Shown here: piece by piece, positions 1,553-64,000 of the stretch
Position numbering within the stretch: position 1 is the stretch's first letter
How the letters are laid out: each line of letters begins with the position of its first letter
Sequence record: MT150133.1
DNA: 64,000 bases
Strand: one strand, 5' to 3'
DNA from: Enterobacteria phage vB_EcoM_IME540
Translations under genes and position numbers: made by a program
Notes under the pieces: generated by a model
What the model saw: the letters and a program-made list of their open reading frames with translations, nothing else
What the model was told of the DNA's origin: nothing
Databases searched by the model: none

Positions 1553-2241
1553 TACCAGCCCTCCATAGGGAATTCCAGATATACTTGAGCATTAACGCGG
1601 ATTTCATTAGTAATCTTTTTAACTCGGTCGGTATTACGAGACACACGACCAAACCAGCGCCAACCGTTACTTACTGCACGAGAACCTGTATGCCATGTCT
1701 GCCAATCAAACTGGAGCAACGTGCGGTCGGGGGCATCCCACTTGGTTAATTCATTAGACTCAATTTTTTCCAGAACTTCTTTATGCCACTGGCGATAGAT
1801 AAGTTCGCCTTCAGGAATCTGACTGAATTGTGCAGTTCCGGTTGCAAAATGAGTAGGACACACATCAGCGTTAACAAGACCAAGAATATGTTCAGAATGG
1901 TATCGAGGATTATCATAATCAGGTTGCCCTGCGGTAATAAAGTGTTGACCCACCGGAATATCCGGGCGTGGTACATCATCATGGTGGAAGCCTGGAATTG
2001 CAGGGTACCAGCCAGGCATTAACATGTGTACACGGGAATCAAATACAATATCAGGGCCACATTGCCAATCTTCAGGCAGGTTTTCAATAAAGCTACGAGT
2101 AATAGGACCGCCATGTTTATGAGCAAAATAAGCATCGCAATTAAAGAACATAGGCTCATTTTTAATCATATCATTACTGATATCTTGAGCAAAACCACCT
2201 ACTGCACGAGCTTTAGAATTAAAAATTTTTGGACCGTTCAT
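1552..2241 (-). CDS. hypothetical protein, 229 aa
   Basis: Long ORF in operon context; His/Asp-rich segment PGFHHDDVPRPD...HSEH could be a metal site; no family recognised. Confidence 0.6.
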   Translation of the reverse strand: MNGPKIFNSKARAVGGFAQDISNDMIKNEPMFFNCDAYFAHKHGGPITRSFIENLPEDWQCGPDIVFDSRVHMLMPGWYPAIPGFHHDDVPRPDIPVGQHFITAGQPDYDNPRYHSEHILGLVNADVCPTHFATGTAQFSQIPEGELIYRQWHKEVLEKIESNELTKWDAPDRTLLQFDWQTWHTGSRAVSNGWRWFGRVSRNTDRVKKITNEIRVNAQVYLEFPMEGW

Positions 2242-2255
2242 AATATTTTCCTCAC

Positions 2256-2468
2256 TTACTTTTTGTTGAAAAAGTACATTTTACCTTTAGGGGATAAGGA
2301 TACACGAAGTGCGTTACCAATACCAACTGAACATTTAACCAGGTCAGCAGATTTCAATTCACCAAATGCTTGACGAAGGTCACCGTCACGAGTGTTAACC
2401 ATCAGGCATTTAGCACCAGCTGCACGAACTTCGTTTAACATGTTGATTGCTTGGTTAGAAAGTTTCAT
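2256..2468 (-). CDS. hypothetical protein, 70 aa
   Basis: Start moved to internal ATG 2468-2466 with RBS GGAG (leader ...GGAGAATAAA-ATG) directly downstream of an early promoter cassette. Confidence 0.5.
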   Translation of the reverse strand: MKLSNQAINMLNEVRAAGAKCLMVNTRDGDLRQAFGELKSADLVKCSVGIGNALRVSLSPKGKMYFFNKK

Positions 2469-2505
2469 TTTATTCTCCATTTCACTCTGTTGTTTTGATA
2501 GGTCT

Positions 2506-2534
2506 ATAGTATCACACCTATAGACCTTGTACAC
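2506..2534 (-). promoter_or_regulatory. sigma70-type early promoter cassette (-35 GTGTAC, 17-bp spacer, -10 TACTAT) with 10-bp inverted repeat AGGTCTATAG/CTATAGACCT
   Basis: Minus strand ...GTGTACAAGGTCTATAGGTGTGATACTATAGACCTATCAAAACAACAGAGTGAAATGGAGAATAAA-ATG. Confidence 0.55.
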
Positions 2535-2546
2535 TGTTTTGTGCAA

Positions 2547-3506
2547 TTATTTTTCGAAAGGACGAATTAAATGTTGGTTACGCTTAAACCGTTCAATGTA
2601 GTCGTTTTCACCTAAAGTCTTGTACATATTAACCACAGCTTGGTAGTTTTCCCATGCATAAGTGCGGAACCAACCTGAAGTGATTGAGGTGCACACTTTC
2701 TCAAGGGCCATATAGAAACTTAATGATGGTGAAATATTGAAGTCATTAGGAACCTGTGAACGTTCTAGTGCCAGGACACAAGTTTCTTCATACACACCAG
2801 CCAGTTTAATAGCTTCAGGCAAAGCCTCGAACTTCTCACGAGAGGTCATGACTTCAGAACCTTCCTTCATATAAAAGGTATATGCAGGGCGCCCTGCCAA
2901 TGCCACTGCTTCATGGATAGAGTCGTGGTCCAGAGTATAAATGGGATCATTAAAGAACGATGATTTGTTTACATCCAATTTAGGGTGGGAATAGCTCAAC
3001 GTTTCTTTTTGACGTTGCAACATAATTTCCTGGAGTTCTTCGTTAAGGGTGATACCTTTATTACGAAGGTATTTGATGTGGGACATGGTTTTCAAGAAGA
3101 ACGGATTATTCTTCAAGAAACGATGGGAGGTTTTGATAGCCAGACAGATATCAGGGGTTGCCCAATAGAAACCTGTAAGACGGTCCTTTTTAATATGATT
3201 TTCGGCATATTTCAGGAGACGATAACTTGAGGTGAAATCTTCGTCTTGAAGCTCACCGGTAATTTCTCGTACGTTAGTCAGGGCACGAACGATATAAGCT
3301 TCAAAATAGGTTTCTTTACCATTGTACATGCATTTAAAAGCCTGGACATCAGGGTTATCCACAGGAACATGGGCACCAAACATCCGAGCTTTAAAGTGAT
3401 TCCATGAGCCTTGGTCGGCAATGAAATCCCAATCAGAATTTTCGATATGCTTACTTTCAATCAGACCAGCGTGGTGCAGTGCACGAGAACCAATAACTAA
3501 CATCAT
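2547..3506 (-). CDS. hypothetical protein, 319 aa; possible Pol-beta-type nucleotidyltransferase-like motif
   Basis: Start at ATG 3506-3504 with RBS GAGGAAA; N-terminal IGSRALHHAGLIESKHIENSDWDFIAD loosely resembles the hG[GS]...DxD signature. Confidence 0.6.
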   Translation of the reverse strand: MMLVIGSRALHHAGLIESKHIENSDWDFIADQGSWNHFKARMFGAHVPVDNPDVQAFKCMYNGKETYFEAYIVRALTNVREITGELQDEDFTSSYRLLKYAENHIKKDRLTGFYWATPDICLAIKTSHRFLKNNPFFLKTMSHIKYLRNKGITLNEELQEIMLQRQKETLSYSHPKLDVNKSSFFNDPIYTLDHDSIHEAVALAGRPAYTFYMKEGSEVMTSREKFEALPEAIKLAGVYEETCVLALERSQVPNDFNISPSLSFYMALEKVCTSITSGWFRTYAWENYQAVVNMYKTLGENDYIERFKRNQHLIRPFEK

Positions 3507-3525
3507 AATATTTTCCTCAGTAAAC

Positions 3526-3765
3526 TTAAATTTCAGCGACGTAATCGTTATGCAATTCCCACATATCATCAGAATTATTCTTAATGATAGGAATTATCTC
3601 ATTAGAGATTTCTTCAGCATAAGGGTCATTGATACAGTGGGCATCTTCAAAACGAACACCGTAATCAGACTTCTTATAAGAGAAGCCATAAATCTTTTTA
3701 AACTTGGCGCGAGTAATGCGTACCGGTTCATTAGACTTATCGGACATCGGAGCGTAATACCACAT
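3526..3765 (-). CDS. hypothetical protein, 79 aa
   Basis: ATG 3765 preceded by RBS GAGGAG in conserved leader ACACAAACATGAGGAGAACAT. Confidence 0.55.
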   Translation of the reverse strand: MWYYAPMSDKSNEPVRITRAKFKKIYGFSYKKSDYGVRFEDAHCINDPYAEEISNEIIPIIKNNSDDMWELHNDYVAEI

Positions 3766-3792
3766 ATGTTCTCCTCATGTTTGTGTAGGGTA

Positions 3793-3821
3793 ATAGTAAC
3801 ATGATTTTCTAGAGTTGTACA
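3793..3821 (-). promoter_or_regulatory. early promoter (-35 TGTACA, -10 TACTAT) with conserved leader
   Basis: Minus strand TGTACAACTCTAGAAAATCATGTTACTATTACCCTACACAAACATGAGGAGAACAT-ATG; leader near-identical to the one at 62501-62557. Confidence 0.45.
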
Positions 3822-4138
3822 TCACTTCTGCAATATTCTAAAAATAATTTATCATTGTCTACTGTATCCCAACGACGCCAAGACGGGTTCCAGACCAAAG
3901 CGTTGTCACCACAATCATTGAGCTTAAAATGGTCGTAGTACATAGCTATGTGTCTAGTCTCGTCACCAGAGAACCCCAGTATAGGCTCACCGTGGGTGTG
4001 ATACATATGATGGTGCATTGAGAGGTCGCATTTGTAAAACATCTCACGTTTACCACGAACGAACAAGAAGGCCTGTCCATTCATATAGAATTCTTTATTT
4101 GTTTTCAAAAGATATTTGAATACTGAATCTTTATGCAT
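3809..4138 (-). CDS. hypothetical protein, 109 aa, His-rich (MHHHMYHTHGE)
   Basis: Start at internal ATG 4138-4136 with strong RBS AGGAGGA. Confidence 0.5.
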   Translation of the reverse strand: MHKDSVFKYLLKTNKEFYMNGQAFLFVRGKREMFYKCDLSMHHHMYHTHGEPILGFSGDETRHIAMYYDHFKLNDCGDNALVWNPSWRRWDTVDNDKLFLEYCRSDVQL

Positions 4139-4168
4139 AAGTCCTCCTACCACATCCATGTGGTTAAA

Positions 4169-4396
4169 TTATTTTCCTAACGAAATACGAGTAGGTTTTT
4201 TACCGAAATAGTCTTCATAAGAACCATCTAAACGACCTGCTTTAGACCGACAATATGAATCGTACTTTTTGTAATAAGTCATCTCAGTATTATAACGCGG
4301 GTGTCTATCAGCCATAATAATACTTAACGGCCAACCTTTGGCATAATCGCGAAGACCATTTATTTTACGAATGTATCTTTTCTTTAATTTTAGCAT
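4169..4396 (-). CDS. possible small basic protein, 75 aa
   Basis: ORF only; no convincing RBS at either candidate ATG. Confidence 0.3.
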   Translation of the reverse strand: MLKLKKRYIRKINGLRDYAKGWPLSIIMADRHPRYNTEMTYYKKYDSYCRSKAGRLDGSYEDYFGKKPTRISLGK

Positions 4397-4614
4397 GAGC
4401 TCGGATACCAGATTTTACCATCGGCCTGAGCAACGAAGGTGCGTCCAGCTTCTTCACCATAACAAGAGCTATTCAGCCAATCTTCGAGACGAACTTCACC
4501 GTCATAATCGTCGAGCTCAACACCAAAACTTTGAGCAGAAGCCATATCTTTTACTTTCTTATACAGTGCAGCCAGTTCAAGTGCGGCTTTTTCTAATTCA
4601 TTAATATCAGTCAT
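4390..4614 (-). CDS. small acidic protein, 74 aa, member 1 of a four-gene paralog array (C-terminus WYPSSC)
   Basis: Start at internal ATG 4614-4612 with RBS AAGGTGA; shares N-terminal MTDINELEK and C-terminal W-x-SS-x-C pattern with neighbours. Confidence 0.55.
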   Translation of the reverse strand: MTDINELEKAALELAALYKKVKDMASAQSFGVELDDYDGEVRLEDWLNSSCYGEEAGRTFVAQADGKIWYPSSC

Positions 4615-4624
4615 TTTTATCACC

Positions 4625-4837
4625 TTAGCAAGACATAGAGGATGTAAACCAGAAACCTTCACCATCTGGGATACCGTAATCATCACGGGCCCATTCATAA
4701 TCATCATATTCCGGATTCTTTGGAGAAATGTATTGTCCACGACCAGAAACATGGAACTCTTCACCCGTTTCGTCAGCCACGGCCTGGCCTTTACGTACTA
4801 ATTCGCGGATTTGTTTTTCAATTTCATCAATAGTCAT
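4625..4837 (-). CDS. small acidic protein, 70 aa, paralog 2 (C-terminus WFTSSMSC)
   Basis: RBS AAGGAAA upstream of ATG 4837; N-terminal MTIDEIEK. Confidence 0.55.
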   Translation of the reverse strand: MTIDEIEKQIRELVRKGQAVADETGEEFHVSGRGQYISPKNPEYDDYEWARDDYGIPDGEGFWFTSSMSC

Positions 4838-4846
4838 TTTATTTCC

Positions 4847-5128
4847 TTAACATTCAGAAGAAGAGGACACCCAACCGCCATTTTCTAGGCTGGTGGTGTA
4901 ATCATGCTGGTTTACAATAGCATACTGGGCTTCACCGTATTCTTCCCAGTGGGCAAGGTCGGCTTTCAAGGCGCCAGGAGAATAATAGTCACCGCCCATA
5001 CCGCGAGCAGGGTATATATTAAAATGAGTCTCATATTTGTTAGCAATTTCCTCGGCACGACGAATAGCTTTATGGATATCATTTACTGCGTCAGCCAGCT
5101 CTTTATTTTTACGGTAATCATTCATCAT
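4847..5128 (-). CDS. small acidic protein, 93 aa, paralog 3 (C-terminus WVSSSSEC)
   Basis: RBS AAGGAAA upstream of ATG 5128. Confidence 0.55.
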   Translation of the reverse strand: MMNDYRKNKELADAVNDIHKAIRRAEEIANKYETHFNIYPARGMGGDYYSPGALKADLAHWEEYGEAQYAIVNQHDYTTSLENGGWVSSSSEC

Positions 5129-5137
5129 AGCGTTTCC

Positions 5138-5428
5138 TTAGCACATTGCCGAAGAGGAGACCCAAGCACCAACTGTAACGACACCGTTTTCAACTTCACC
5201 GCCATTGTTTTCAATTTCATCTTTAAACCATTGGGAGCATTCATAACCGACAGGATAATATGTACGGCCTGAACCATAACCACCGGTACTGAATTCAATA
5301 CCATATTCATCTGCGATTTCTTCACATTTGGATTCGATGGTGCCTACTTTACCCAGCAGGTCATAGATAGCCTTTTCTGCGGACAGCGCGCTGTTGTATT
5401 CAGGGATTTCAATTTCAATTTTATTCAT
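5138..5428 (-). CDS. small acidic protein, 96 aa, paralog 4 (C-terminus WVSSSAMC)
   Basis: RBS AAGGAA upstream; start overlaps stop of upstream gene. Confidence 0.55.
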   Translation of the reverse strand: MNKIEIEIPEYNSALSAEKAIYDLLGKVGTIESKCEEIADEYGIEFSTGGYGSGRTYYPVGYECSQWFKDEIENNGGEVENGVVTVGAWVSSSAMC

Positions 5429-5778
5429 GATTTACATTCCTTAATAAAGGTTTCAAGGTCATTACGTTTAGTTTGTTTTACATACTCATTATAATTAACC
5501 ATAGCTAAAGCATATCTCTTTTTACGCGGCTTGTTTATTTTATTAGTTTGGGCAATATCAAAGACCCATGGGATAAAAAATCCTATTAAAGCCGGAACCC
5601 AAATCCATGCAAGGCTCATATCTTCAAACGGATGGCGAGGCATACCATTAATAATCCCACCGACAAGAAATCCAATTATCCCTGCAGTCATACTAGTAGC
5701 AATGCCGAGGAATAAGGAAATAGCTATATCATAATCTGCTAATGCGTAACCAGGGTCGGTTTTACTAGGCTTATGCAT
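5425..5778 (-). CDS. hypothetical membrane protein, 117 aa, with C-terminal ...NDLETFIKECKS tail
   Basis: Start at internal ATG 5778-5776; two hydrophobic helices (IAISLFLGIATSMTAGIIGFLVGGII; AWIWVPALIGFFIPWVF). Confidence 0.55.
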   Translation of the reverse strand: MHKPSKTDPGYALADYDIAISLFLGIATSMTAGIIGFLVGGIINGMPRHPFEDMSLAWIWVPALIGFFIPWVFDIAQTNKINKPRKKRYALAMVNYNEYVKQTKRNDLETFIKECKS

Positions 5779-6307
5779 TTTGAACCTCTTTAGCGTATTC
5801 GCGACATTCAGTAATAAAACGATTAAGTTTACGTTGTTGTTTACGAATCTCTGATGTATACTCATTGGCTAAAATAATAAGCTCATCTTTATCGTAATTT
5901 TTAATATCCGAATAACTCGGGCGGCGGTCGACCATACCAAAGTGGTCACCATTTTCTAACATCAAATAGCATACTAAATGGTAATCATCGTCGGCATCAA
6001 CAAGCTGTTTATAATCGCTTGGTTCATTTAAAGAGTATACTGAATAGCGTAGCCCAGCGAATTCCACTCGTTGAATAGCCAGATTTACGTCAATAATTTC
6101 TAAAGCATCTGCAAAAGAAAGGTCCTCAGCTAAAGCAAAGATAAAGGGTAATTTGGTAGTATGCCCACGGCTAGATGTTCTGCTTAAGAAATCGTTTGAA
6201 TAACCTAGGTCTTGGCGAATTCTATAAAGAACTGCATTAGTTTCATGTGAAAGACCACTATGTTTAAACCAATCAATATTTGATATCAGGTCGTCGTATA
6301 AACTCAT
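5771..6307 (-). CDS. hypothetical protein, 178 aa, with C-terminal IRKQQRKLNRFITECREY module
   Basis: ORF with RBS GGAGGAGAGGAG upstream of ATG 6307. Confidence 0.6.
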   Translation of the reverse strand: MSLYDDLISNIDWFKHSGLSHETNAVLYRIRQDLGYSNDFLSRTSSRGHTTKLPFIFALAEDLSFADALEIIDVNLAIQRVEFAGLRYSVYSLNEPSDYKQLVDADDDYHLVCYLMLENGDHFGMVDRRPSYSDIKNYDKDELIILANEYTSEIRKQQRKLNRFITECREYAKEVQNA

Positions 6308-6330
6308 AATATTCTCCTCTCCTCCAAATA

Positions 6331-6348
6331 GGGAGACCGAAGTCTCCC
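6331..6348. terminator. stem-loop GGGAGAC-CGAA-GTCTCCC
   Basis: Perfect 7-bp stem with tetraloop between two minus-strand genes; same stem sequence recurs at 46366-46383. Confidence 0.45.
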
Positions 6349-6355
6349 GGTAACA

Positions 6356-6949
6356 TTACTTAAGTGAATTAATGTAGTCTTCGATATCAGCAGAAGTCGT
6401 ATCCATTCCAACTTGCGGGCCTTTAAACGTTTCTACGCGCATCAGGGTGTCTTCGATATCAATCTTGGTCAGTGCAGCAATTTCAACAACATCGTCGGCA
6501 GTAGCAATACCAAGGGCAGCCATATTACGAGTTTCACGGATGTACTCGAGCTTAACAGCCAGTTCCTGACGAGAGTCATCAAGTTCCTTAACCTTCAGTT
6601 TAATTTCATTACGCATTTCGATATAATCATCGGCTTTCTTACGAAGCTGAGTAGCTGTACGACGATAAAGGAGACCGAGTTTAGCATGTACCTGGACATC
6701 AGAGCCTTCGGCAATCAGTTTACGAATTTCACGTTCTTTAGAAGCAGCGAGCTGGTCTTTTTCATTAGCCAAAGCACGAATACGTTTTTCTTCATTCACA
6801 GACTTAACATGAGCAGTCTGGAGTTCAGTGATTTTATCAATCAGAGTAGAAGCAGCTTTGGTGTATTGGTCTTCGATTGACAGGTTCTGAGCCATTGCGG
6901 TGCCCAGTTTAGAACGAATGAATTCAACGATTTTCTTTAAAGTGTTCAT
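6356..6949 (-). CDS. PspA/IM30 (phage-shock protein A / Vipp1)-like coiled-coil protein, 197 aa
   Basis: Start at ATG 6949-6947 with RBS GAAGGAAA; heptad-rich sequence with segments resembling PspA ([13 protein letters not shown] vs RALAEKKQL; [18 protein letters not shown] vs ELENKLSETRARQQAL), from memory. Confidence 0.5.
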
Positions 6950-7025
6950 AGTATTTCCTTCAGTTGGTTGATATTTTGTAATCCATGAGGACATTATACC
7001 CTGTCCTCTGAGGTTTGTAAACATT

Positions 7026-7424
7026 TTATTTCATTTTTGCGAGGCAGATTTCATTGGCTTCCCATTGAGCTTGCTTAATAATAGCTTTGGATACAGGAGC
7101 CCTTTGCCCATAAGTTTTTGACGTTGAGAGAACAATACATTTGTTTGCTTCATTATGCCAGCCCCATGATTTTTCGCCATGAGTACCTTTAACTACAGCT
7201 GACACCTCAACAGAGCAACCGCCATCAGAAATCTTGGTTTCGACAACCCATTCATTTCTCTCAGCAGCTTCAATTTCTAATCTAGTTTTTTCTTCATACA
7301 TCGCGGCCCAATCAGTTTTTGCCAAGTTGAAAGTAAGAGCTTTCTCTAATTCTTTGGCATATTTTTGTTGTTCAGGTGTTAATGAATTATACAACTCTTG
7401 CATTTCTTTATCTTCGATATTCAT
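7026..7424 (-). CDS. hypothetical protein, 132 aa
   Basis: ATG 7424 with RBS GAGGAG in leader TTTGAGGAGAACATA; early promoter upstream. Confidence 0.55.
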
Positions 7425-7449
7425 TATGTTCTCCTCAAATTATGGGCTC

Positions 7450-7479
7450 ATAATATCTTAATCATGAGCCCATGTAAAC
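7450..7479 (-). promoter_or_regulatory. early promoter (-35 GTTTAC, 18-bp spacer, -10 TATTAT) inside inverted repeat TGGGCTCA/TGAGCCCA
   Basis: Minus strand GTTTACATGGGCTCATGATTAAGATATTATGAGCCCATAATTTGAGGAGAACATA-ATG. Confidence 0.5.
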
Positions 7480-7482
7480 GTT

Positions 7483-7746
7483 TTATTTCATATTATTGAA
7501 ATAATTTTCTGCATCAAAATCATTACCATGGTAAACTTTGGTAGACGATTTGGCGTAACCTTCAGCTGAGAACATATTAATCACAACTTTAATTGTATAC
7601 CACTGTCCATCTTCATTACCCATTACTGCATAGGTTTCATACACCGGGTGTTCAGGACCGATAACCTTAATATCGTTAACTGTGGCACCAAATTCTTCCG
7701 GAACGCATTTCATAAAGAAATTAAACACTTCACCATAATTATCCAT
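7483..7746 (-). CDS. hypothetical protein, 87 aa
   Basis: Track ORF begins at a GTG; real start taken as ATG 7746-7744 with RBS AAGGAG. Confidence 0.5.
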   Translation of the reverse strand: MDNYGEVFNFFMKCVPEEFGATVNDIKVIGPEHPVYETYAVMGNEDGQWYTIKVVINMFSAEGYAKSSTKVYHGNDFDAENYFNNMK

Positions 7747-7781
7747 TTTACTCTCCTTCACTCTGTTGTTTTGATAGGTCT

Positions 7782-7810
7782 ATAGTATCATGTTTAAAGG
7801 AGGTGTAAAC
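7782..7810 (-). promoter_or_regulatory. early promoter cassette (-35 GTTTAC, 17 bp, -10 TACTAT)
   Basis: Minus strand GTTTACACCTCCTTTAAACATGATACTATAGACCTATCAAAACAACAGAGTGAAGGAGAGTAAA-ATG. Confidence 0.55.
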
Positions 7811-7833
7811 ATCTTTTTTAAACTTTTAGAAAC

Positions 7834-7861
7834 AAAAAAGGCCCAACCTTTCGGAAGGGCC
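7834..7861 (-). terminator. rho-independent terminator, copy 1 of identical 30-bp element ACAAAAAAGGCCCAACCTTTCGGAAGGGCC
   Basis: Minus strand reads GGCCCTTCCGAAAGGTTGGGCC + TTTTTT directly after the stop of gene 7867-8421. Confidence 0.65.
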
Positions 7862-7866
7862 GTGAA

Positions 7867-8421
7867 TCAGTTCTTGTAGAACCGGAACGGGTTTATGTGG
7901 AAGGCTAACATAGCCTTAGGGATTTTACGAGACAAAAGACTCTTAAGTTTCCAACCACAGTACACGCGAAGGTAAAAGGTAATTCCACCTACTTTAAGAT
8001 ACGGAACCGAAGCAAAGACTCCCCATGCTTCATCATTCCACATCCATAACCAACCATGGTGAGCTTTATCAGGAGAACCAGATTCTACATCAGGATTACC
8101 GCGATAATGGAATTCTGAACTACAATCACGTCCTAGTTTATGATAAGCAAAGTTATAAGCTTTATTTCGCCATAGCCAAGCTACTCTCTGGAGGTAAACA
8201 CCACCAGGCATTTTCCTGATTTTAGCCCAACGTTTAATATGACCTTTGTCGCCATCAATTGGATTATCGTATGTCATCATCCAATCAAAGCCATAAGGCA
8301 ATTTACCGGTCTTTTTATTGTAGAAAGGAACTACAAAAGGCGCAAGGATAACGGCTAGAACCATAGAGATAAAATCCAGCGGGACCAACAGAATCCAACT
8401 CAAATATTTTAAAAGTTTCAT
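7867..8421 (-). CDS. hypothetical membrane-anchored protein, 184 aa, Trp/His-rich C-terminal domain
   Basis: N-terminal hydrophobic segment LSWILLVPLDFISMVLAVILAPFVVPF; RBS AGGAAATAAT; late-type TATAAATA box 27 nt upstream. Confidence 0.6.
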   Translation of the reverse strand: MKLLKYLSWILLVPLDFISMVLAVILAPFVVPFYNKKTGKLPYGFDWMMTYDNPIDGDKGHIKRWAKIRKMPGGVYLQRVAWLWRNKAYNFAYHKLGRDCSSEFHYRGNPDVESGSPDKAHHGWLWMWNDEAWGVFASVPYLKVGGITFYLRVYCGWKLKSLLSRKIPKAMLAFHINPFRFYKN

Positions 8422-8447
8422 ATTATTTCCTAAGTTAGTTTACTACA

Positions 8448-8455
8448 TATTTATA
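8448..8455 (-). promoter_or_regulatory. late promoter TATAAATA for gene 7867-8421
   Basis: Minus strand TTTTTTGTATAAATATGTAGTAAACTAACTTAGGAAATAAT-ATG. Confidence 0.5.
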
Positions 8456-8456
8456 C

Positions 8457-8484
8457 AAAAAAGGCCCAACCTTTCGGAAGGGCC
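8457..8484 (-). terminator. rho-independent terminator, copy 2 of the identical 30-bp element
   Basis: Same hairpin + T-run downstream of the tRNA/ncRNA region. Confidence 0.65.
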
Positions 8485-8490
8485 TTTAAC

Positions 8491-8715
8491 CTAGGGTAAC
8501 CTTGTCGGGGTTCCACCTGCTAGGCAAGTGTTCGGTGCGCCGTTTCAGCTGTGATAGTAAAGAGCCAGAACACAGTAAAACTGTGGGAGGAACTATACTC
8601 CAGGGAACATCAGTCCGACGACTTACCGGTAGCGACCCGGTTTCTTGTTTGGTGCGCCGGTGAATGCTGGTAATCAGTCTTCATACGACGGCTTGACTAT
8701 ATAATAGTCTTCATT
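8491..8715 (-). ncRNA. candidate small stable RNA(s) downstream of tRNA-Arg, analogous in position to T4 RNA species C/D
   Basis: 225 nt with no credible ORF, between tRNA-Arg and a terminator; internal repeats GGTGCGCCG and AGTCTTCAT; not folded. Confidence 0.3.
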
Positions 8716-8790
8716 TGGTATCCCGCCCTGGGATCGAACCAGGACCGCAAACTTAGAAGGATCGTATGCTATCCATTACACCAGCGGGAC
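8716..8790 (-). tRNA. tRNA-Arg (anticodon UCU), CCA encoded
   Basis: Minus strand GTCCCGC...TTCTAAG...CCTGGTTCGATCCCAGGGCGGGATACCA; 7-bp acceptor stem, T-arm CCTGG-TTCGATC-CCAGG, anticodon loop CTTCTAA. Confidence 0.85.
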
Positions 8791-8795
8791 GTAAT

Positions 8796-9461
8796 TCAAA
8801 ATTTTATTTTACGGCCTTTATTCCAACCTTCAGGAATAATATCCGTTTTGTTAATACGTTTAGAAACTTTTTCTTCTAAAGAATGAATCCACATTTTTCC
8901 ATATCCGGAATTATTTTCACCTTGTTGGTGTTTATTTCTGGCGTGAGATTCTTTCATTTTATTTTTGGTTTCATCTGAATGGGTCTTACCCAAGAAAGAT
9001 TTAGTATTTGAAAATTTCTCTCTATACTTAGGATTATCCCAAAGTTGTTTAAACCTTTCCGAACCCATTTTACGATATTTTTCTTTAAGGTCTGGGTCGT
9101 TCTCAAATCTGGTTTTAAAAGCGGCAACTCCTTTTAAGGAAGCTTCTTTCTTTTTATCTAAATATTCTTCAGTGTTTAAATGGTCCCAACCACCTTCACC
9201 ACCTAATTTCAAATTATAAACATCAGGGCGCTTTAAAAACTCTTCAGTCACAATATTCTTTTCTGACTCAAACATAGAGGTTTTATCGTCAAAGAACTCT
9301 AATATTTCTTTAGAGAAATTTTCTATACCGTATTTGACCTGGGCCCTTTTTAAGAGTTTACCAGAACCAAAATATGCATCATTCAAATTTTCGGTTGAAT
9401 GGGCGCCTATATAGATTTTATTATTAATTTTGTTTGTTATTTTATAAGTGTAATGGAACAT
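8796..9461 (-). CDS. segB: GIY-YIG homing endonuclease, segB-like, inside the tRNA cluster
   Basis: 221 aa; N-terminal YKITNKINNKIYIGAHST...GSGK motif; basic NUMOD-like C-terminus; RBS AGGAGA; same position as T4 segB. Confidence 0.8.
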   Translation of the reverse strand: MFHYTYKITNKINNKIYIGAHSTENLNDAYFGSGKLLKRAQVKYGIENFSKEILEFFDDKTSMFESEKNIVTEEFLKRPDVYNLKLGGEGGWDHLNTEEYLDKKKEASLKGVAAFKTRFENDPDLKEKYRKMGSERFKQLWDNPKYREKFSNTKSFLGKTHSDETKNKMKESHARNKHQQGENNSGYGKMWIHSLEEKVSKRINKTDIIPEGWNKGRKIKF

Positions 9462-9502
9462 AAATATCTCCTATTTCTAAGAGTATTTATGTTCTCAAAA
9501 TA

Positions 9503-9573
9503 TGGCCCTGGGTGGAATCGAACCACCATCCAGCGATTATGAGTCGCTCGCTTGACCGTCCAGCTACAGGGCC
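9503..9573 (-). tRNA. tRNA with CAU anticodon (Met, or Ile if lysidine-modified), CCA not encoded
   Basis: Minus strand GGCCCTG...AGCGA-CTCATAA-TCGCT...GGTGG-TTCGATT-CCACC-CAGGGCC-A. Confidence 0.8.
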
Positions 9574-9578
9574 TTAAA

Positions 9579-9851
9579 TCAAACTACAAATCCAGCAGGA
9601 GCATTATCATCTTTAGCCATGTGCTGAATTGTATGATAAGTCATTTCTTCAGGAGCAACCAGATAAGCCGCAGCGTTAACTAGTGGAATTATTTTTGGTT
9701 TAGCGAATGTGCTATCGGCAATTGCCATAAAGGGCTCGCCATCAGTCTCAACTTCGCCAAATTGACATTCATATGAAATAGAACAACGTTTGGTAGTTGT
9801 TGTCTTGGTTTCTGGGTCGTAAAAAGCTAATTTTAATACTAACATAAACAC
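9579..9851 (-). CDS. hypothetical protein, 90 aa
   Basis: ORF only, immediately upstream of the tRNA. Confidence 0.4.
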   Translation of the reverse strand: MFMLVLKLAFYDPETKTTTTKRCSISYECQFGEVETDGEPFMAIADSTFAKPKIIPLVNAAAYLVAPEEMTYHTIQHMAKDDNAPAGFVV

Positions 9852-9903
9852 CTCAAATAAAATTAAGTAAAGTAAGTTTGATTAATAGACCTTGTCTATT
9901 ATG

Positions 9904-9929
9904 AAAGGTTCTTTGAGGGAAGAACCTTT
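9904..9929. other. 10-bp-stem hairpin AAAGGTTCTT-TGAGGG-AAGAACCTTT in an intergenic region
   Basis: Perfect inverted repeat in 170-nt noncoding stretch 9852-10019. Confidence 0.4.
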
Positions 9930-10019
9930 GGTAATAGAGGGTATTAATGATAGAGTAATAATAACACATTACTCTTAAAGCATATTACTATTTTTAGGAA
10001 TAGTCTGGTCAAATTTGAT

Positions 10020-10310
10020 TCATTGTGGCCACATATTAATGTAATCAAGTTTAATAGAAGCAATCTTCAAAGGATTTTTAAAGATGTCGTATTCGATCAA
10101 TCCGTTTTCAGTTGCGGTGTAGAAAGTAAAGTTAACAGAATTATAACGGCGACCATTAACTTTTAGTTTAACGTCGCTTGAACTACGACCAATATTAACC
10201 TGTTGGACATCAAGCACAGCACCTTTGCCAAAGTTGCGAATCAGTAGCTCTGCTGCAACCTGGTCTGAATTATAGCCATTCTCTGGATTAGTAACCTTAA
10301 CGTATAGCAT
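10020..10310 (-). CDS. hypothetical protein, 96 aa
   Basis: ORF with RBS GAGGG; stop/start juxtaposed to the upstream gene. Confidence 0.5.
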   Translation of the reverse strand: MLYVKVTNPENGYNSDQVAAELLIRNFGKGAVLDVQQVNIGRSSSDVKLKVNGRRYNSVNFTFYTATENGLIEYDIFKNPLKIASIKLDYINMWPQ

Positions 10311-10718
10311 TTAACCCTCGTCTACAATAGTATGGGTATTAGCATTAACAATCTGCCACCAGTCACAGTCAAAACGATTAGAACCGTAACGAGGCTTTTT
10401 CTCATTTTCGTTAATAATATCACGTAGTTCGTCTTCAGAAAATGCTTTAGCGATTAAATCGGTATAGCCGCCACGTGGATAATAGTTATCACCTGCGAAC
10501 AGAAGGAAATTTACTTTACCAGAAGGAACATATGCTTCCTTAGGATACTTGTTTCCTGCTTGGTCTACCACTTCAATATAACGGTAAGGAATATCGGTAC
10601 TTTCAACCCATTGCCAAGCTGCAGCAGGGGATTCAAAAGCATCTACACCTAAACGGTTATCTTCATCTTTAGACGGATTATTTTCATAATCCGCATATAC
10701 ATAATATTCAATGTTCAT
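10311..10718 (-). CDS. hypothetical protein, 135 aa
   Basis: ORF with TAATG overlap to the upstream gene. Confidence 0.55.
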   Translation of the reverse strand: MNIEYYVYADYENNPSKDEDNRLGVDAFESPAAAWQWVESTDIPYRYIEVVDQAGNKYPKEAYVPSGKVNFLLFAGDNYYPRGGYTDLIAKAFSEDELRDIINENEKKPRYGSNRFDCDWWQIVNANTHTIVDEG

Positions 10719-10903
10719 TATTCACCTTTAGAGATTTTATCCATAACGAAAGAAATTGAACCAATTAAGAATGCCACTACTAAAGAGATTATATTCTCGG
10801 AAGTTGAAAGCATATCGAGCATGAATCCTGCAAACATACTAAAGCCAAAAGCAGTAACAGCGGCCAGTGCAGTAACATTTCTAATTAATTCACAAGGTTT
10901 CAT
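10718..10903 (-). CDS. small hydrophobic membrane protein, 61 aa
   Basis: Track ORF begins at TTG; real start ATG 10903-10901 with RBS GGAG in leader GGAGAATAAA-ATG; two hydrophobic stretches. Confidence 0.5.
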   Translation of the reverse strand: MKPCELIRNVTALAAVTAFGFSMFAGFMLDMLSTSENIISLVVAFLIGSISFVMDKISKGE

Positions 10904-10939
10904 TTTATTCTCCAATCACTCATTTGTTTTGATAGGGCT

Positions 10940-10969
10940 ATAGTACCATCACTAAAGCCCGTTGTAAAC
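10940..10969 (-). promoter_or_regulatory. early promoter cassette (-35 GTTTAC, -10 TACTAT) with inverted repeat GGGCTATAG/CTAAAGCCC
   Basis: Minus strand GTTTACAACGGGCTTTAGTGATGGTACTATAGCCCTATCAAAACAAATGAGTGATTGGAGAATAAA-ATG. Confidence 0.55.
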
Positions 10970-10971
10970 AA

Positions 10972-11244
10972 TTATTTTAAATAAATTGCATATTTTTTAT
11001 AACCAGCCGTCTCGTGGCGCAGCCCTTTTTCATTAGCAAAACGTTCAATATTGTTAATTTGATTCTGGTCGAGTTCTGAAGTATCAAATACAAAAAAGTT
11101 TCGCTTATTGCCTAAAGTTACGTGATTAGTCAAATCGATGTTATAGAGATGATTTATATTATCAATCATGGTCTTAACAGATTTGTTAATTTTTACTTCT
11201 TCATTAAGAATAGATTCAGCGATAAATTCTTGGTATGATTTCAT
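10972..11244 (-). CDS. internal-protein-like, 90 aa, with N-terminal capsid-targeting sequence MKSYQEFIAES
   Basis: N-terminus matches the T4 internal protein (IPI/IPII/IPIII) capsid-targeting sequence MKTYQEFIAEA; body differs from the neighbour. Confidence 0.65.
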   Translation of the reverse strand: MKSYQEFIAESILNEEVKINKSVKTMIDNINHLYNIDLTNHVTLGNKRNFFVFDTSELDQNQINNIERFANEKGLRHETAGYKKYAIYLK

Positions 11245-11245
11245 T

Positions 11246-11470
11246 TTATTCAGCGCCAGCAGCTTTCAAAAGTTTTTTAAGATTGGCTATGCCGCCAGCA
11301 GAAAACGTGACCTTGCCACCTTTTTCATTGATAGAGCCAGTCAATTTAGCAAGCTTATCACTAGGGACTTTTTTAAAATCAGCCAGTGTGCCATCAAAGG
11401 TTTTTGTAACAATTGGCAGTTCATCTTCATGTCTTTTAGCTTCGGTGATAAATTCTTGATAAGTTTTCAT
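11246..11470 (-). CDS. internal-protein-like, 74 aa, with N-terminal capsid-targeting sequence MKTYQEFITEA
   Basis: Capsid-targeting-type N-terminus; early promoter cassette upstream. Confidence 0.65.
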   Translation of the reverse strand: MKTYQEFITEAKRHEDELPIVTKTFDGTLADFKKVPSDKLAKLTGSINEKGGKVTFSAGGIANLKKLLKAAGAE

Positions 11471-11507
11471 TTTGATTTCCGTTTGGTTAGTTTGTTTTGA
11501 TAGGTCT

Positions 11508-11536
11508 ATAGTATCATGCCTATAGACCTTGTAAAC
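11508..11536 (-). promoter_or_regulatory. early promoter cassette (-35 GTTTAC, 17 bp, -10 TACTAT) with 10-bp inverted repeat AGGTCTATAG/CTATAGACCT
   Basis: Minus strand GTTTACAAGGTCTATAGGCATGATACTATAGACCTATCAAAACAAACTAACCAAACGGAAATCAAA-ATG. Confidence 0.55.
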
Positions 11537-11547
11537 AACTTTTTAAA

Positions 11548-12240
<693 letters not shown>

Positions 12241-46349: not shown

Positions 46350-46365
46350 GATATAACCTTATTAT

Positions 46366-46383
46366 GGGAGACTTCGGTCTCCC
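46366..46383. terminator. stem-loop GGGAGAC-TTCG-GTCTCCC after gene 23
   Basis: Perfect 7-bp stem with UUCG-type loop followed by T-rich sequence; same stem as at 6331-6348. Confidence 0.6.
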
Positions 46384-46398
46384 ATTCTTGTTTCTGTA

Positions 46399-46665
46399 TT
46401 ATGCAATCTTAACTCGGCGGTTGATGATATCACGGAAGTCAATACGATTTTCTTGGATTTTCAGCCAGTTACCAGATTTGTCTTTGGTATGGGTAGAGTA
46501 TTCACCGTTCCACCAGAAGTCGGTAGCATAAGCCATGGCTTCGTATTTCTTAACTAAGGCATTCACTGCATTACCATTAGGATTGTTACCGAATTTTTCT
46601 ACCAGAGCTTTGATGTCTTTATCAAGAGCGGAAAGAGTAGTACGAATAAAGTTTAACTTGTTCAT
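46399..46665 (-). CDS. hypothetical protein, 88 aa, on the opposite strand between genes 23 and 24
   Basis: Start at ATG 46665-46663 with RBS GAGGAG; own early promoter cassette upstream. Confidence 0.5.
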   Translation of the reverse strand: MNKLNFIRTTLSALDKDIKALVEKFGNNPNGNAVNALVKKYEAMAYATDFWWNGEYSTHTKDKSGNWLKIQENRIDFRDIINRRVKIA

Positions 46666-46694
46666 TTTTAATCTCCTCATGTTTTGATAGGTCT

Positions 46695-46724
46695 ATAGTA
46701 ACATGTGAGAATCTTGCTGTAAAC
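46695..46724 (-). promoter_or_regulatory. early promoter cassette (-35 GTTTAC, 18 bp, -10 TACTAT)
   Basis: Minus strand GTTTACAGCAAGATTCTCACATGTTACTATAGACCTATCAAAACATGAGGAGATTAAAA-ATG. Confidence 0.5.
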
Positions 46725-46730
46725 AACTTT

Positions 46731-46738
46731 TATAAATA
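46731..46738 (+). promoter_or_regulatory. late promoter TATAAATA for gene 24
   Basis: Exact consensus 29 nt upstream of ATG 46767, back-to-back with the minus-strand early promoter. Confidence 0.6.
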
Positions 46739-46766
46739 AACATATACCCTCAATAAGGAAAGCGCA

Positions 46767-54096: not shown

Positions 54097-54098
54097 AC

Positions 54099-54126
54099 AA
54101 AAAAGGCCCAACCTTTCGGAAGGGCC
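54099..54126 (-). terminator. rho-independent terminator, copy 3 of the identical 30-bp element
   Basis: Same sequence as at 7834-7861 and 8457-8484; T-run on the minus strand. Confidence 0.6.
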
Positions 54127-62209: not shown

Positions 62210-62500
62210 TTATTTACGGAACGAAATGAAACCTGCTGCAGTCATTAGTGGTTGCTTTTTAACAAACACCGTGACTGAAATAGGAGCTTCAGATTCGAGT
62301 TGTCCTGTCACTACACCATTAAAGATATTTTCAGTTTGTTCCGGCTGAGAAAAGTTCTCAACAGGACGGATATCAAATTGCTTATCTTCACCGAAAACTC
62401 GACGCAATTCATTACCAACTGCACTGTCAAACTCTTCGGAAGCAGGGATAACGTTTTCAACTACCAGTTCTTGACCATTAAAACGGAATGCAGATTTCAT
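62210..62500 (-). CDS. hypothetical protein, 96 aa
   Basis: ATG 62500 with RBS GAGGAG in conserved leader ACACAAACATGAGGAGAACATT. Confidence 0.5.
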   Translation of the reverse strand: MKSAFRFNGQELVVENVIPASEEFDSAVGNELRRVFGEDKQFDIRPVENFSQPEQTENIFNGVVTGQLESEAPISVTVFVKKQPLMTAAGFISFRK

Positions 62501-62528
62501 AATGTTCTCCTCATGTTTGTGTAAGGTA

Positions 62529-62558
62529 ATAGTAACACCATCCTTGGCGTTTGTAAAC
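62529..62558 (-). promoter_or_regulatory. early promoter (-35 GTTTAC, 18 bp, -10 TACTAT) with conserved leader
   Basis: Minus strand GTTTACAAACGCCAAGGATGGTGTTACTATTACCTTACACAAACATGAGGAGAACATT-ATG. Confidence 0.5.
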
Positions 62559-64000
62559 TACCCTTGTACAAATTTATATTGGAGAGCGTCGATATCTATA
62601 CAAGAAGCTAACAAGCCAAGACCTCTGTCTGAGTTCTTTTTCTTCTCATTAGAAACAAATGAATCAAAAGAAAGCTCACCACCATCTTTATAGACAACGA
62701 GTTCTCCTGTTTCCATTAGGGCATCACCGTCGTATACTACAGCTTCATTAAGTTCATCTGCAGTCATTACTTCGGCTTGAATAAACTTATTGTTAGAACG
62801 AGTAGTCCCGTTGTTATATGAGGCATCTGTAATTTTATTGATTTTAACCATCAACCCTCTAGGAAGAATTACTTCCATTTCGTTAGAAGGGGCTAGGTCT
62901 CCACCAGGTAAAACGACATTTACTTTATTAGCACCAGTAATGGCCCAACCGATACCTACTAAGGTATCTTTAACTGAATATACCAAGCCTTCATCAGATT
63001 TATCTAAAGCAACATCTCGACGCTTTTCATCAGGTAAAACACCAACACCAGAATCAGTCATCCATGTACCAAAAATATTTGGATAAAGTGATGTTGATAC
63101 AAAGTTCCTGAAATAGAATACTTTGTTTTTAACCATAGCCAGGTAAATATCAGGAATCATTCGTTGAGAACGATAAAGCGTGATACCTTCCGGAAGTTGT
63201 TCACCATTTTCAAAAGCAGAATCTAAGTTATTGATAGCTTTTTCTATCTCTTCATTAGTCAAAATACTGGTTCTTGTATTAGGGTCGCGGATTCCTAAAA
63301 GAACATTATTCATATCTTCGTAACCGGAGCCAACGTATTCACGAATACCACGCTTCTGTGCTGGTGTATAACGAGATACGTCTTTATTTTCTACAATAGA
63401 ATGTAATTGCCAACCCGCGGTAAGAGCATAAACACGCAGTTCGCGCTGAATAATTTTGGTCTTTATAGCATTCCAAGAATTTTCGGCTAACTCTATGGCT
63501 TCGTGATAACCTAAGTGAGAATGCCAGGCCATTAGTTTTTGAAGCCAAGGGCCTTTATATTCTTCGATGACATCATCAACCACTGAAGCATAATTTTCTA
63601 GAGCTTTTACTGAAGTCACATTTAATCCATGTAATTTCTCAAAAGCTCTCATTTTTATGTCGGTATTAATTTCTTCCATTTTATCTTCTGGAATAAGAAG
63701 GTTGTCTTTAAACGACATACCGCCGGTATTAGCACTAATGGTATTTTCTAAAGCCAAGAAAGAATTAGAAATAACCTTTATTTCATTTGCTTCCGGCATT
63801 AAAGGACCTGTAGCAGGTTTATTCAATTCGACAGCATTAGACTCAAATTTCTTAAACATTGGAGTTTCGAAACGAGATGATTCTAAGGATTGCGACATAG
63901 CAATAGCACGACGTGAAATCTTAGTCTTGGTAATGACAGCCTTATCAGTACGTTTCTCTTCAACTTTAGCTATACTTGCCGAGACGGCTTCGGCCTTACT
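62558..64000 (-). CDS. alt: Alt-type ADP-ribosyltransferase, C-terminal ~480 codons; start lies beyond the window end
   Basis: Frame open from 64000 to stop at 62558; R-S-E ADP-ribosyltransferase triad candidates LYRSQR, FVSTSL, EMEVIL; position next to 54 as in T4. Confidence 0.75.
   Translation of the reverse strand, partial: SKAEAVSASIAKVEEKRTDKAVITKTKISRRAIAMSQSLESSRFETPMFKKFESNAVELNKPATGPLMPEANEIKVISNSFLALENTISANTGGMSFKDNLLIPEDKMEEINTDIKMRAFEKLHGLNVTSVKALENYASVVDDVIEEYKGPWLQKLMAWHSHLGYHEAIELAENSWNAIKTKIIQRELRVYALTAGWQLHSIVENKDVSRYTPAQKRGIREYVGSGYEDMNNVLLGIRDPNTRTSILTNEEIEKAINNLDSAFENGEQLPEGITLYRSQRMIPDIYLAMVKNKVFYFRNFVSTSLYPNIFGTWMTDSGVGVLPDEKRRDVALDKSDEGLVYSVKDTLVGIGWAITGANKVNVVLPGGDLAPSNEMEVILPRGLMVKINKITDASYNNGTTRSNNKFIQAEVMTADELNEAVVYDGDALMETGELVVYKDGGELSFDSFVSNEKKKNSDRGLGLLASCIDIDALQYKFVQG

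Follow-up and report, generated by a model that had tools for sequence, protein, structure and literature searches.

Repeated early promoter cassettes, probably of the promoter-early-stem-loop kind, in a JS98-like T4-type phage

In this work, we examine a set of repeated early promoter cassettes in a stretch of 64,000 nucleotides from Enterobacteria phage vB_EcoM_IME540 (record MT150133.1), hereafter called the window, and compare them with the promoter-early-stem-loop elements (PeSLs) of T4-type phages. PeSLs were defined in the phages RB49 and phi1 as a succession of stop codon, AT-rich tract, strong early promoter, stem-loop, Shine-Dalgarno (SD) sequence and ATG, with the stem most often located between the two promoter boxes or over the -10 box (Arbiol 2010, PMC2839356). 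They cluster in hyperplastic regions in front of ORFans, where they mediate deletion and insertion; the stem of one RB49 PeSL cut lacZ expression as much as the rrnB T1 terminator, and mini-circles were shown for the PeSLs of RB49 and phi1, with the crossover of one RB49 mini-circle mapped to the loop (PMC2839356). JS98 is cited in that paper only for PeSL-like sequences near gene 43. PeSLs were later extended to T4/PST, with the promoter consensus TTTACW-N17-TAYWAT, and to nt-1/KVP40 (Comeau 2014, PMC4122927). According to the summary of Repoila 1994 given in PMC2839356, analogous elements at both internal-protein loci of the T-even phages combine T4 early promoters with stems that are weaker, AT-rich and variable in size. 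Another arrangement is known from the T4 genes e, soc, 49 and I-TevI, where a promoter lies inside a hairpin that exerts translational control (PMC3014915). The consensus of T4-type early promoters comprises GTTTAC at -36 to -31, a GT-rich or TG segment before the -10 box, T-12, A-11 and T-7, as well as an upstream A-tract and a preference for C at -3 to -1, which was reported for RB69, RB49 and 44RR (PMC1524935). We found no catalogue of PeSLs for the genus Dhakavirus in the literature.

The source of the window is a Dhakavirus (Straboviridae, Tevenvirinae), i.e. a JS98/JS10-like T4-type phage. Bases 2000-12000 are 97.8% identical to Escherichia phage LHE83 and 88-96% identical to JS10, IME281, VR5, MX01, UP19 and MN04, all of which are Dhakavirus; for JS10, IME281, VR5 and MX01 the identity is 90-95%. 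A first-pass annotation, made from the letters of the window, had flagged a span that by synteny corresponds to e – nudE – e.x – tRNA – trna.x – internal protein – 57B, transcribed from the minus strand; the e–tRNA–57B stretch is a classic hyperplastic region of T4-type phages. That annotation reported near-identical modules in front of at least eight minus-strand genes. All the copies that it listed are real, and the window contains nine minus-strand cassettes in total, the ninth, at 6993, being absent from its list; five of them (family A) are near-identical. As far as sequence comparison can tell, these are probably T4-type early promoter cassettes of the PeSL kind, each of which would combine a promoter with homology for recombination and, in about half of the cases, with a stem selected on read-through RNA. 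Seven of the nine sit in the e–tRNA–57B region, whereas cassettes 46695 and 62529 lie outside the flagged span. All nine end in GGAG or GGAA followed by ATG. In the following list, each cassette is named after the last base of its -10 box.

2466..2560, minus strand: cassette 2506 (family A), with an A-rich tract, -35 GTGTAC (2534-2529), 17-nt spacer and -10 TACTAT (2511-2506); perfect 10-bp stem with arms 2527-2518 and 2509-2500 (RNA hairpin of -15.4 kcal/mol, z -4.6); leader 2505-2490, GGAG as SD, and ATG 2468 of a 70-aa open reading frame (ORF; phrog_6001).
3763..3848, minus strand: cassette 3793 (family B), with -35 ATGTAC (3822-3817), 18-nt spacer, -10 TACTAT (3798-3793) and leader TACCCTACACAAACATGAGGAGAACAT, followed by ATG 3765 of a 79-aa ORF (phrog_3723); no significant stem.
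6947..7047, minus strand: cassette 6993, with -35 GTTTAC (7022-7017) right after the upstream stop codon and -10 TATAAT (6998-6993); stem GAGGACA (7008-7002) / TGTCCTC (6993-6987); ATG 6949 is the start of the e.6 homologue.
7422..7505, minus strand: cassette 7450, the orthologue of the T4 e.7 promoter, with -35 GTTTAC (7479-7474) and -10 TATTAT (7455-7450); perfect 10-bp stem ATGGGCTCAT (7473-7464) / ATGAGCCCAT (7451-7442), -20.1 kcal/mol, z -6.6; ATG 7424.
7744..7861, minus strand: cassette 7782 (family A), with -35 GTTTAC (7810-7805) and -10 TACTAT (7787-7782); an intrinsic terminator (7861-7833, GGCCC...GGGCC and T6) upstream of the promoter, and no stem straddling the -10 box; ATG 7746 of the e.8 homologue.
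10901..10995, minus strand: cassette 10940 (family A), with -35 GTTTAC (10969-10964), 18-nt spacer and -10 TACTAT (10945-10940); stem GGGCTTTAG (10960-10952) / CTATAGCCC (10943-10935), 8 of 9 positions paired and one T·T, z -3.8; ATG 10903 is the start of the trna.4 homologue.
11468..11562, minus strand: cassette 11508 (family A), with -35 GTTTAC (11536-11531) and -10 TACTAT (11513-11508); perfect 10-bp stem with arms 11529-11520 and 11511-11502, z -6.6; ATG 11470 of an internal virion protein gene, whose product begins with MKTYQEF, a motif common to the internal-protein genes of relatives.
46663..46750, minus strand: cassette 46695 (family A), with -35 GTTTAC (46724-46719) and -10 TACTAT (46700-46695); no stem; ATG 46665 of an 88-aa ORF that separates the major capsid gene from the next late gene, with no co-directional gene upstream.
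62498..62584, minus strand: cassette 62529 (family B), with -35 GTTTAC (62558-62553) overlapping the stop codon of an ADP-ribosyltransferase (alt-like) gene and -10 TACTAT (62534-62529); ATG 62500 of a DUF5498 ORF; no significant stem.

The common layout consists of an A-rich upstream tract, -35 GTTTAC, a spacer of 17-18 nt, TGn with TACTAT or TATAAT, a C-rich segment at -6 to -1, a CA-rich leader and the SD. The promoter described in the first-pass annotation (GTTTAC, 17-18 bp spacer, TACTAT) is that of family A, except that GTTTAC is present in four copies and cassette 2506 has GTGTAC. In this family the spacer is 17 nt long in 2506, 7782 and 11508 and 18 nt long in 10940 and 46695, and the -10 box is TACTAT throughout. 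TGn directly precedes this box in four of the five copies, and in 46695 a TGT lies one base further upstream. Behind the box stands AGACCT or AGCCCT and then ATCAAAAC. When all nine cassettes are considered, eight combine GTTTAC or GTGTAC as -35 box with TACTAT, TATAAT or TATTAT as -10 box at a spacing of 17-18 nt, while the -35 box of 3793 is degenerate. The sequence that runs into the -35 box is TAAAATAATTTAAAAAGTT-GTTTAC in 11508 and ATGAAATAAAAT-GTTTAC in 6993. The cassettes agree with the T4-type early consensus in its invariant TTAC and TACTAT and in the nearly invariant T and G before the -10 box, and a CC(T/C) run precedes the predicted +1 A. Promoter activity and a start at the A of ATCAAAAC, 7 nt downstream of the -10 box, are predicted from this consensus and from orthology with T4. 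Note that the T4 RefSeq record has no annotated promoter features, and mapped T4 starts are not transferable by annotation.

The signal lies in extended identity and not in the hexamers. A search with the bare -35/-10 pattern gave 10 matches against 8.5 expected, which is not above chance, and it is not used as evidence here. Family-A cassettes share exact runs of 12-34 nt, and the near-identity among the modules totals about 45-70 nt. The leader AGACCTATCAAAACAA, at one mismatch or less, has five matches, every one on the minus strand (2490-2505, 7766-7781, 10924-10939, 11492-11507 and 46679-46694); at three mismatches or less, it has eight against 1.12 expected, a number reached in 0 of 100 shuffles. 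The leader and ribosome-binding site that 2506, 7782 and 10940 had been said to share are indeed common to them, with an exact match of 34 nt between 2506 and 7782 and of TGGAGAATAAAATG between 2506 and 10940. The related family that had been noted at 3793, 7450 and 62529 is likewise confirmed: the leaders of 3793 and 62529 have an exact run of 22 nt in common (TACACAAACATGAGGAGAACAT), and 7450 is connected to them only by the leader GAGGAGAACAT, with TATTAT as its -10 box. The genes behind the cassettes encode small products of unknown function or internal virion proteins. Since they belong to different PHROGs, which are unrelated families, gene duplication is not the source of the similarity between cassettes.

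T4 carries homologous cassettes at denV, ipI, ipII, ipIII, e.6, e.7 and trna.4; stems are also present at these T4 cassettes, that of ipII being 14 bp long, and the denV cassette has an identical TACTATAGACCTATCAAC. Cassette 11508 matches 501 phage records, with about 82% identity at the internal-protein loci of Tequatrovirus. A separate observation concerns Pseudomonas phage PspYZU05 (166,442 bp), which is recorded as infecting Pseudomonas and carries the GGGCT/AGCCC version of the cassette (AAGGGCTATAGGTTTGATACTATAGCCC) in front of at least five different ORFs; only two database records match PspYZU05.

With the PeSLs of RB49/phi1, T4/PST and nt-1/KVP40, the cassettes share a composite intergenic structure and a clustered location in hyperplastic regions before small ORFs of unknown function. 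The resemblance to PeSLs that the first-pass annotation had pointed out holds for all features that can be tested from sequence, among them the early consensus, the AT-rich tract, the stem over the -10 box and the crossovers inside cassettes (see below). A stem-loop is present over the -10 box in five cassettes, and 7782 has its terminator hairpin upstream of the -35 box. The PeSL stems described so far lie between -35 and -10, over -10, or upstream of -35, and those of the window straddle -10; the PST stems lie just upstream of the promoter according to a figure legend, whereas the window stems mostly straddle the -10 box. Crossovers at PeSLs in related phages fall in the AT-rich/-35 region, between -10 and ATG, or between SD and -10, and the same sub-sites are found here. 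In addition, the promoter consensus of the T4/PST PeSLs fits the window cassettes, and the stemless cassettes 3793, 46695 and 62529 are comparable to the 'degraded' PeSLs of PMC4122927. The PeSLs of RB49 differ in having TTGACA as -35 box and stems of G-runs and C-runs, and they are not homologous in sequence to the window cassettes. Terminator activity and mini-circles were demonstrated for RB49/phi1 only. As far as the account of Repoila 1994 in PMC2839356 goes, the T-even internal-protein elements are found at the same loci, 57B-ip-trna.4 and e-ipIII-ipII-denV, and are T4-type early promoters linked to the shuffling of internal-protein genes, as here. The window differs from them in that it represents another genus and in that its cassettes also serve genes for other products, namely the e.6, e.7, e.8 and trna.4 homologues and the ORF between the capsid genes. 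A known kind of element, matching the PeSLs of Arbiol 2010 and Comeau 2014, was thus recognised correctly in a genus where it is uncatalogued. The design of PeSLs is found beyond RB49, T4/PST and the vibriophages; with homologous sequence, it is common to JS98-like, T4-like, Jiaodavirus and other T-even lineages.

The window was aligned with eight relatives and the junctions were read. The first-pass annotation had suggested looking at these junctions for gene replacement, and three deletions with the crossover inside cassettes are found there. JS10 is without the ORF 7483-7746; the gene behind 7450 has there acquired the promoter and leader of 7782, with the join within the SD. In UP19, the missing ORF is 7026-7424, and cassettes 7450 and 6993 have recombined at ATGAAATAA/GTTTAC. 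VR5 is without both ORFs, and a crossover in ATCAA joins a 7782-type promoter to the e.6 leader. The window has two internal-protein genes between cassettes 10940 and 11508. In JS10 and MN04 both cassettes are conserved, and these genes are replaced by sequence without detectable similarity, with a different annotated ORF in MN04 and none annotated in JS10. MX01 contains an extra ip gene flanked by a duplicated cassette, and in IME281, UP19 and MN04 extra ORFs are inserted that abut cassettes 7782 and 11508 on the upstream side. Mixed cassettes, composed of halves from different copies, are seen as well (in the relative labelled L015). The junction sequences in three relatives show that genes between two cassettes are exchanged as units. 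The cassettes account for several differences in gene content between therapeutic-type coliphages, namely in the e.7 and e.8 homologues and the internal-protein genes.

Five of the nine cassettes (2506, 6993, 7450, 10940 and 11508) have an inverted repeat straddling the -10 box. When folded as RNA, the five stems have energies of -11.7 to -20.1 kcal/mol (z -3.8 to -6.6), and three of the eight perfect hairpins of at least 10 bp in the window sit on cassette -10 boxes. A 10-bp inverted repeat around the -10 box, which several copies had been said to carry, does exist, but among the window copies its perfect form AGGTCTATAG/CTATAGACCT is present in 2506 and 11508 only. Similarly, the arms of 10940 are GGGCTTTAG/CTATAGCCC and not GGGCTATAG/CTAAAGCCC as had been transcribed, but the double change from T-A to G-C is genuine. 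Cassettes 7782 and 46695 have no left arm. For folds of the whole cassette from -35 to ATG, z is non-significant for 3793, 46695 and 62529, and also for 6993 (-0.72) despite a z of -4.5 for its isolated stem. Rfam has no family covering the stems. With TACTAT at -12 to -7, the 3' arm CTATAGACCT occupies -10 to -1, and the position is the same in 7450 and 6993; the 3' arm stops at -1 in all five stem-bearing cassettes of the window, and in some relatives it extends into ATCA at +1 to +4. With the arm stopping at -1, RNA initiated at the cassette would not include the stem, which would be present only in RNA coming from upstream.

To the window we added 38 DNA stretches with 40 distinct cassettes, obtained by scanning IMG/VR for TACTATAGNCCTATCAAAAC, together with the corresponding region of T4, of eight Dhakavirus genomes and of one Tequatrovirus and one Jiaodavirus. 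The scoring of covariation over aligned copies, as proposed in the first-pass annotation, gave a partial answer: among 64 distinct family-A cassettes with TACTAT, one pair covaries (G-C 19, U-A 14, U-G 2), but 59.7% of the cells are paired against 57.0% after shuffling, and whole-helix scores are barely above those of the controls. This column-wise test is weak because the left arms stand in differing registers, so that one column structure fits them poorly, and we do not use it as the main argument. A larger set of orthologues of the trna.4 promoter was sought in IMG/VR by DNA pattern and by protein, and mostly close relatives were returned.

Three other tests, which do not depend on a common register, give a clear result. 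First, perfect stems of at least 7 bp between the spacer and -10/-1 occur in 22 of 91 distinct GTTTAC promoters, compared with 5.6 ± 1.9 when arms are swapped between promoters (300 permutations, maximum 11). Second, at least 12 distinct arm pairs occupy this position across the relatives, including GGTCT/AGACC, GGGCT/AGCCC, AGGCT/AGCCT, GGGTA/TACCC, GAGGTA/TACCTC, GGGTT/AACCC, GGGATA/TATCCC, GGGTGT/ACACCC, GGGCTC/GAGCCC, GGCTC/GAGCC, GAGGAC/GTCCTC, TAGGAC/GTCCTA and others. Stems also differ at orthologous promoters, in several T-even genera. Upstream of trna.4, four lineages have four different stems, and the T4 e.7 stem ATAGGCTNAT/ATGAGCCTAT (one base is unread in the T4 record and ATAGGCTCAT is presumed) shows a compensated A-T/G-C difference from that of 7450. 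Third, the transition-type mismatches within distinct stems are G·T or T·G in 13 cases and A·C or C·A in 2 (binomial P ~0.004 if independent). This bias argues for selection on the sense single strand, most simply on read-through RNA, and not on an operator. Taken on many unrelated stems at one position, on the compensated differences and on the bias, the earlier claim that the pairing is selected holds, and the evidence points to a sense single strand, most simply RNA, as the level of selection. The only new angle of this work is that the stems, with compensated change and strand-specific G·U tolerance, appear to be selected as sense-strand structures, i.e. as RNA structures, beyond recombination homology or a protein-binding dyad. 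It offers a concrete and testable way into the role of the 'SL' in PeSL.

In another class of early promoters, the spacer contains an anti-SD sequence, which forms 10-13 bp with the cassette's own SD, e.g. ATCTCCTGTAG...CTACAGGAGAT. It is found in the relatives labelled L042, L043 and L041 (at the denV promoter), L014, L012, L063, L064, L023 and L062, and also at T4 denV (L065, about 1357-1420). Spacer-SD stems of at least 7 bp number 12, compared with 2.6 ± 1.5 after permutation. Within the window, the only anti-SD match is that of 7782, whose spacer CTCCTT is complementary to the SD AAGGAG; it is weak (6 bp, z -1.7). The anti-SD stems of the relatives and of T4 denV have exactly the geometry of T4 e, soc, 49 and I-TevI, where the promoter lies inside the stem, so that RNA started there is without the 5' arm and RNA from upstream contains the complete stem (PMC3014915). 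An anti-SD stem would mask only read-through RNA, blocking its translation as in those genes. The four T4 genes differ in that their promoters are late ones and the stem masks the SD or AUG. In the main class of the window, the spacer instead pairs with -10 to -1, and because the SD is left free, these stems cannot act by translational masking, which we rejected as an explanation for them.

The explanation that we favour is as follows. Immediately after infection, each module would be read by host sigma-70 RNA polymerase, and its A-rich UP-like tract, GTTTAC, TGn-extended -10 box TACTAT and C-rich -3 to -1 would drive a small early gene. Phage homologous recombination uses the modules as crossover points by virtue of their shared exact runs and near-identity, with deletion, insertion or replacement of whole genes between two cassettes, as the junctions show. 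The spacer would, in about half of the cassettes, pair with the end of the -10 box and -6 to -1, and on the read-through transcript this stem may act as a cistron-boundary element, i.e. as an attenuator, as a barrier to processing or decay, or as a protector of the 3' end of the upstream cistron. A broader proposal, which we offer tentatively and regard as rather doubtful, is that the early promoter serves to discriminate its own from read-through transcripts: only upstream RNA would fold, selection would act on sense-strand RNA, and the two stem designs would be interchangeable. At the trna.4 promoter, the fifth lineage (L062) carries the spacer-SD design where the others carry the spacer/-10 to -1 design. 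If true, this would extend the late-promoter-in-hairpin logic of T4 e, soc and I-TevI to early transcription units generally, and the PeSL stem would gain a defined role at the RNA level apart from recombination homology.

Several points weigh against the explanation that we favour. About 6-7 of some 21 breakpoints fall inside cassettes, which cover 6.6% of the region, but this is an enrichment against a uniform null only: cassettes make up about 44% of the intergenic bases and contain about 6-7 of some 15 intergenic breakpoints, i.e. there is no enrichment over intergenic DNA. We rely on the junction sequences for this reason. Other breakpoints involve the SegB-like homing endonuclease, tRNA genes, a 43-nt repeat between tandem paralogues, and gene boundaries. 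As for the stems, four of the nine window cassettes have no significant one, and at orthologous positions a stem is sometimes broken (C·A in MN04, T·C in JS98) or missing (VR5); across the whole collection, stems are absent or broken in many cassettes. No U-tract follows the -10 stems, the next sequence being AUCAAAACAA, AUAAUUUG or AUGGAUUAC, and a terminator scan flagged no stem straddling the -10 box. The strict family-A covariation rests on one pair, and slid controls reach an equal covariation score. Finally, the sequences counted are related, and events were counted off the tree, so that the counts are phylogenetically non-independent.

Among the other explanations, the one that survives best is that the stems have no function. 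They could have arisen by templated (quasipalindrome) mutation or gene conversion and spread by whole-cassette recombination, the cassettes being simply strong promoters. The many cassettes that work without a stem, the decay at some orthologous sites and the single covarying pair of the strict family alignment are in line with this idea, as are the chimeric cassettes, in which promoter halves have been exchanged. Templated correction of imperfect palindromes is, moreover, known from T4, where Ripley and co-workers reportedly described it first. However, unrelated stems recur at the same place across lineages and registers, and the 3' arm ends at -1 in every stem-bearing cassette of the window; templating of one arm by the other yields perfect pairs and does not predict a 13:2 excess of G·T over A·C. 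We therefore consider stems without function unlikely.

The stems might also be intrinsic terminators for RNA of the upstream gene, a role proposed for PeSLs, and the lacZ result with an RB49 stem speaks for it (PMC2839356). The distribution is complementary as well, in that 7782, which has a co-directional gene upstream and is the sole window cassette with a canonical upstream terminator, has no -10 stem. Termination by the -10 stems is nevertheless quite unlikely: a U-run is found only after the separate hairpin 7861-7833, none of the -10 stems was reported by the terminator scan, and full termination at every cassette would leave the anti-SD class pointless. Because of the first two points, the terminator role of one RB49 PeSL is not simply transferable to the window.

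Still less probable is that the stems act as DNA, by extrusion of a cruciform or hairpin that would serve as a nuclease target or stalling site and make the cassette an active recombination hot spot. Arbiol et al. raise the possibility of a stem-specific recombination protein, T4 deletions often end at GGGC/GCCC inverted repeats, and one RB49 mini-circle has its crossover in the loop (PMC2839356); the stems of 10940 and 7450 contain GGGC/GCCC. Yet the three resolved crossovers of the relatives lie at the -35 box, in the leader and in the SD, not in stems, and the stemless cassette 7782 is involved. The stems are short (7-13 bp) and AT-rich, and tolerance of G·T on one strand is unexpected for a symmetrical cruciform. 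Both the neutral templated-mutation and the DNA-cruciform readings are less well supported than the RNA-level reading that we favour.

The operator that the first-pass annotation offered as an alternative, a dimeric phage or host protein that would bind the inverted repeat and shut the early promoters off, is very improbable: although the repeat overlaps the -10 box and start site in the classic operator position, the family-A half-site CTATAGACCT is highly conserved and the shut-off of T4 early promoters is described as incompletely understood (PMC3014915), there is no single shared dyad, as the arms vary between cassettes (GGTCT, GGGCT, GGGCTC, GAGGAC, GGGTA, GAGGTA, GGGTT, GGGATA), loop length and register vary between 6 and 17 nt, the right half stands without a left one in half of the near-identical set (7782, 46695 and many cassettes of relatives), the conserved part is the promoter and leader and not the dyad, and a strand-specific bias of G·T over A·C is unexpected for a protein-binding site in duplex DNA.

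Other features of the window were noted in passing. An identical 29-nt intrinsic terminator, GGCCCTTCCGAAAGGTTGGGCCTTTTTTG, occurs three times on the minus strand (7833-7861, 8456-8484 and 54098-54126; 0 expected). Its first copy forms the upstream part of cassette 7782, so that a repeated terminator module exists alongside the repeated promoters. The ORF behind cassette 46695 (46399-46665, minus strand, phrog_6003) is small and of early type, with a family-A promoter, and is antisense in orientation, with the major capsid gene on one side and the next late gene on the other. A 9-bp hairpin at 46364-46385 (ATGGGAGAC ttcg GTCTCCCAT), which could serve both strands, closes it.

Two further changes do not involve a promoter cassette. 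A 43-nt direct repeat at 4832-4874, comprising an SD and the first codons (MTIDEIEK), flanks in most relatives an extra 198-nt ORF that is absent from the window; this is a deletion between tandem small paralogues, i.e. shuffling without a cassette. In the gene for an e.2-like membrane protein (959-1552), DNA similarity over the central part 982-1313 is undetectable in all of the eight relatives except MX01, and the ends are 90-95% identical, which represents an intragenic replacement unrelated to the cassettes.

The tRNA region contains a gene for a SegB-like GIY-YIG homing endonuclease (8796-9461, minus strand) between tRNA-Arg and tRNA-Met. The segment has 81% DNA identity to T4 tRNA-Arg/segB, and the gene is missing from several relatives. 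Its SD and AUG are buried in a strong hairpin (9454-9496, -17.9 kcal/mol, z -7.0), the 5' arm of which includes CATAAATA, a sequence that differs at one position from the T4 late promoter TATAAATA; this is a predicted case of translational masking in the style of I-TevI and gene e. Nearby, 8531-8653 (minus strand) has about 78% identity to T4 rnaD (species 2 stable RNA). A counterpart of rnaC was not detected, and neither rnaD nor rnaC is covered by an Rfam family. Upstream of the ORF 9579-9845, a gap of 174 nt contains three adjacent perfect hairpins of 8, 10 and 8 bp (9883-9975). In the alignment with T4, 9897-9993 falls on the segment that separates the tRNA cluster from trna.2, and in four relatives a 477-nt ORF is inserted at 9985-9993.

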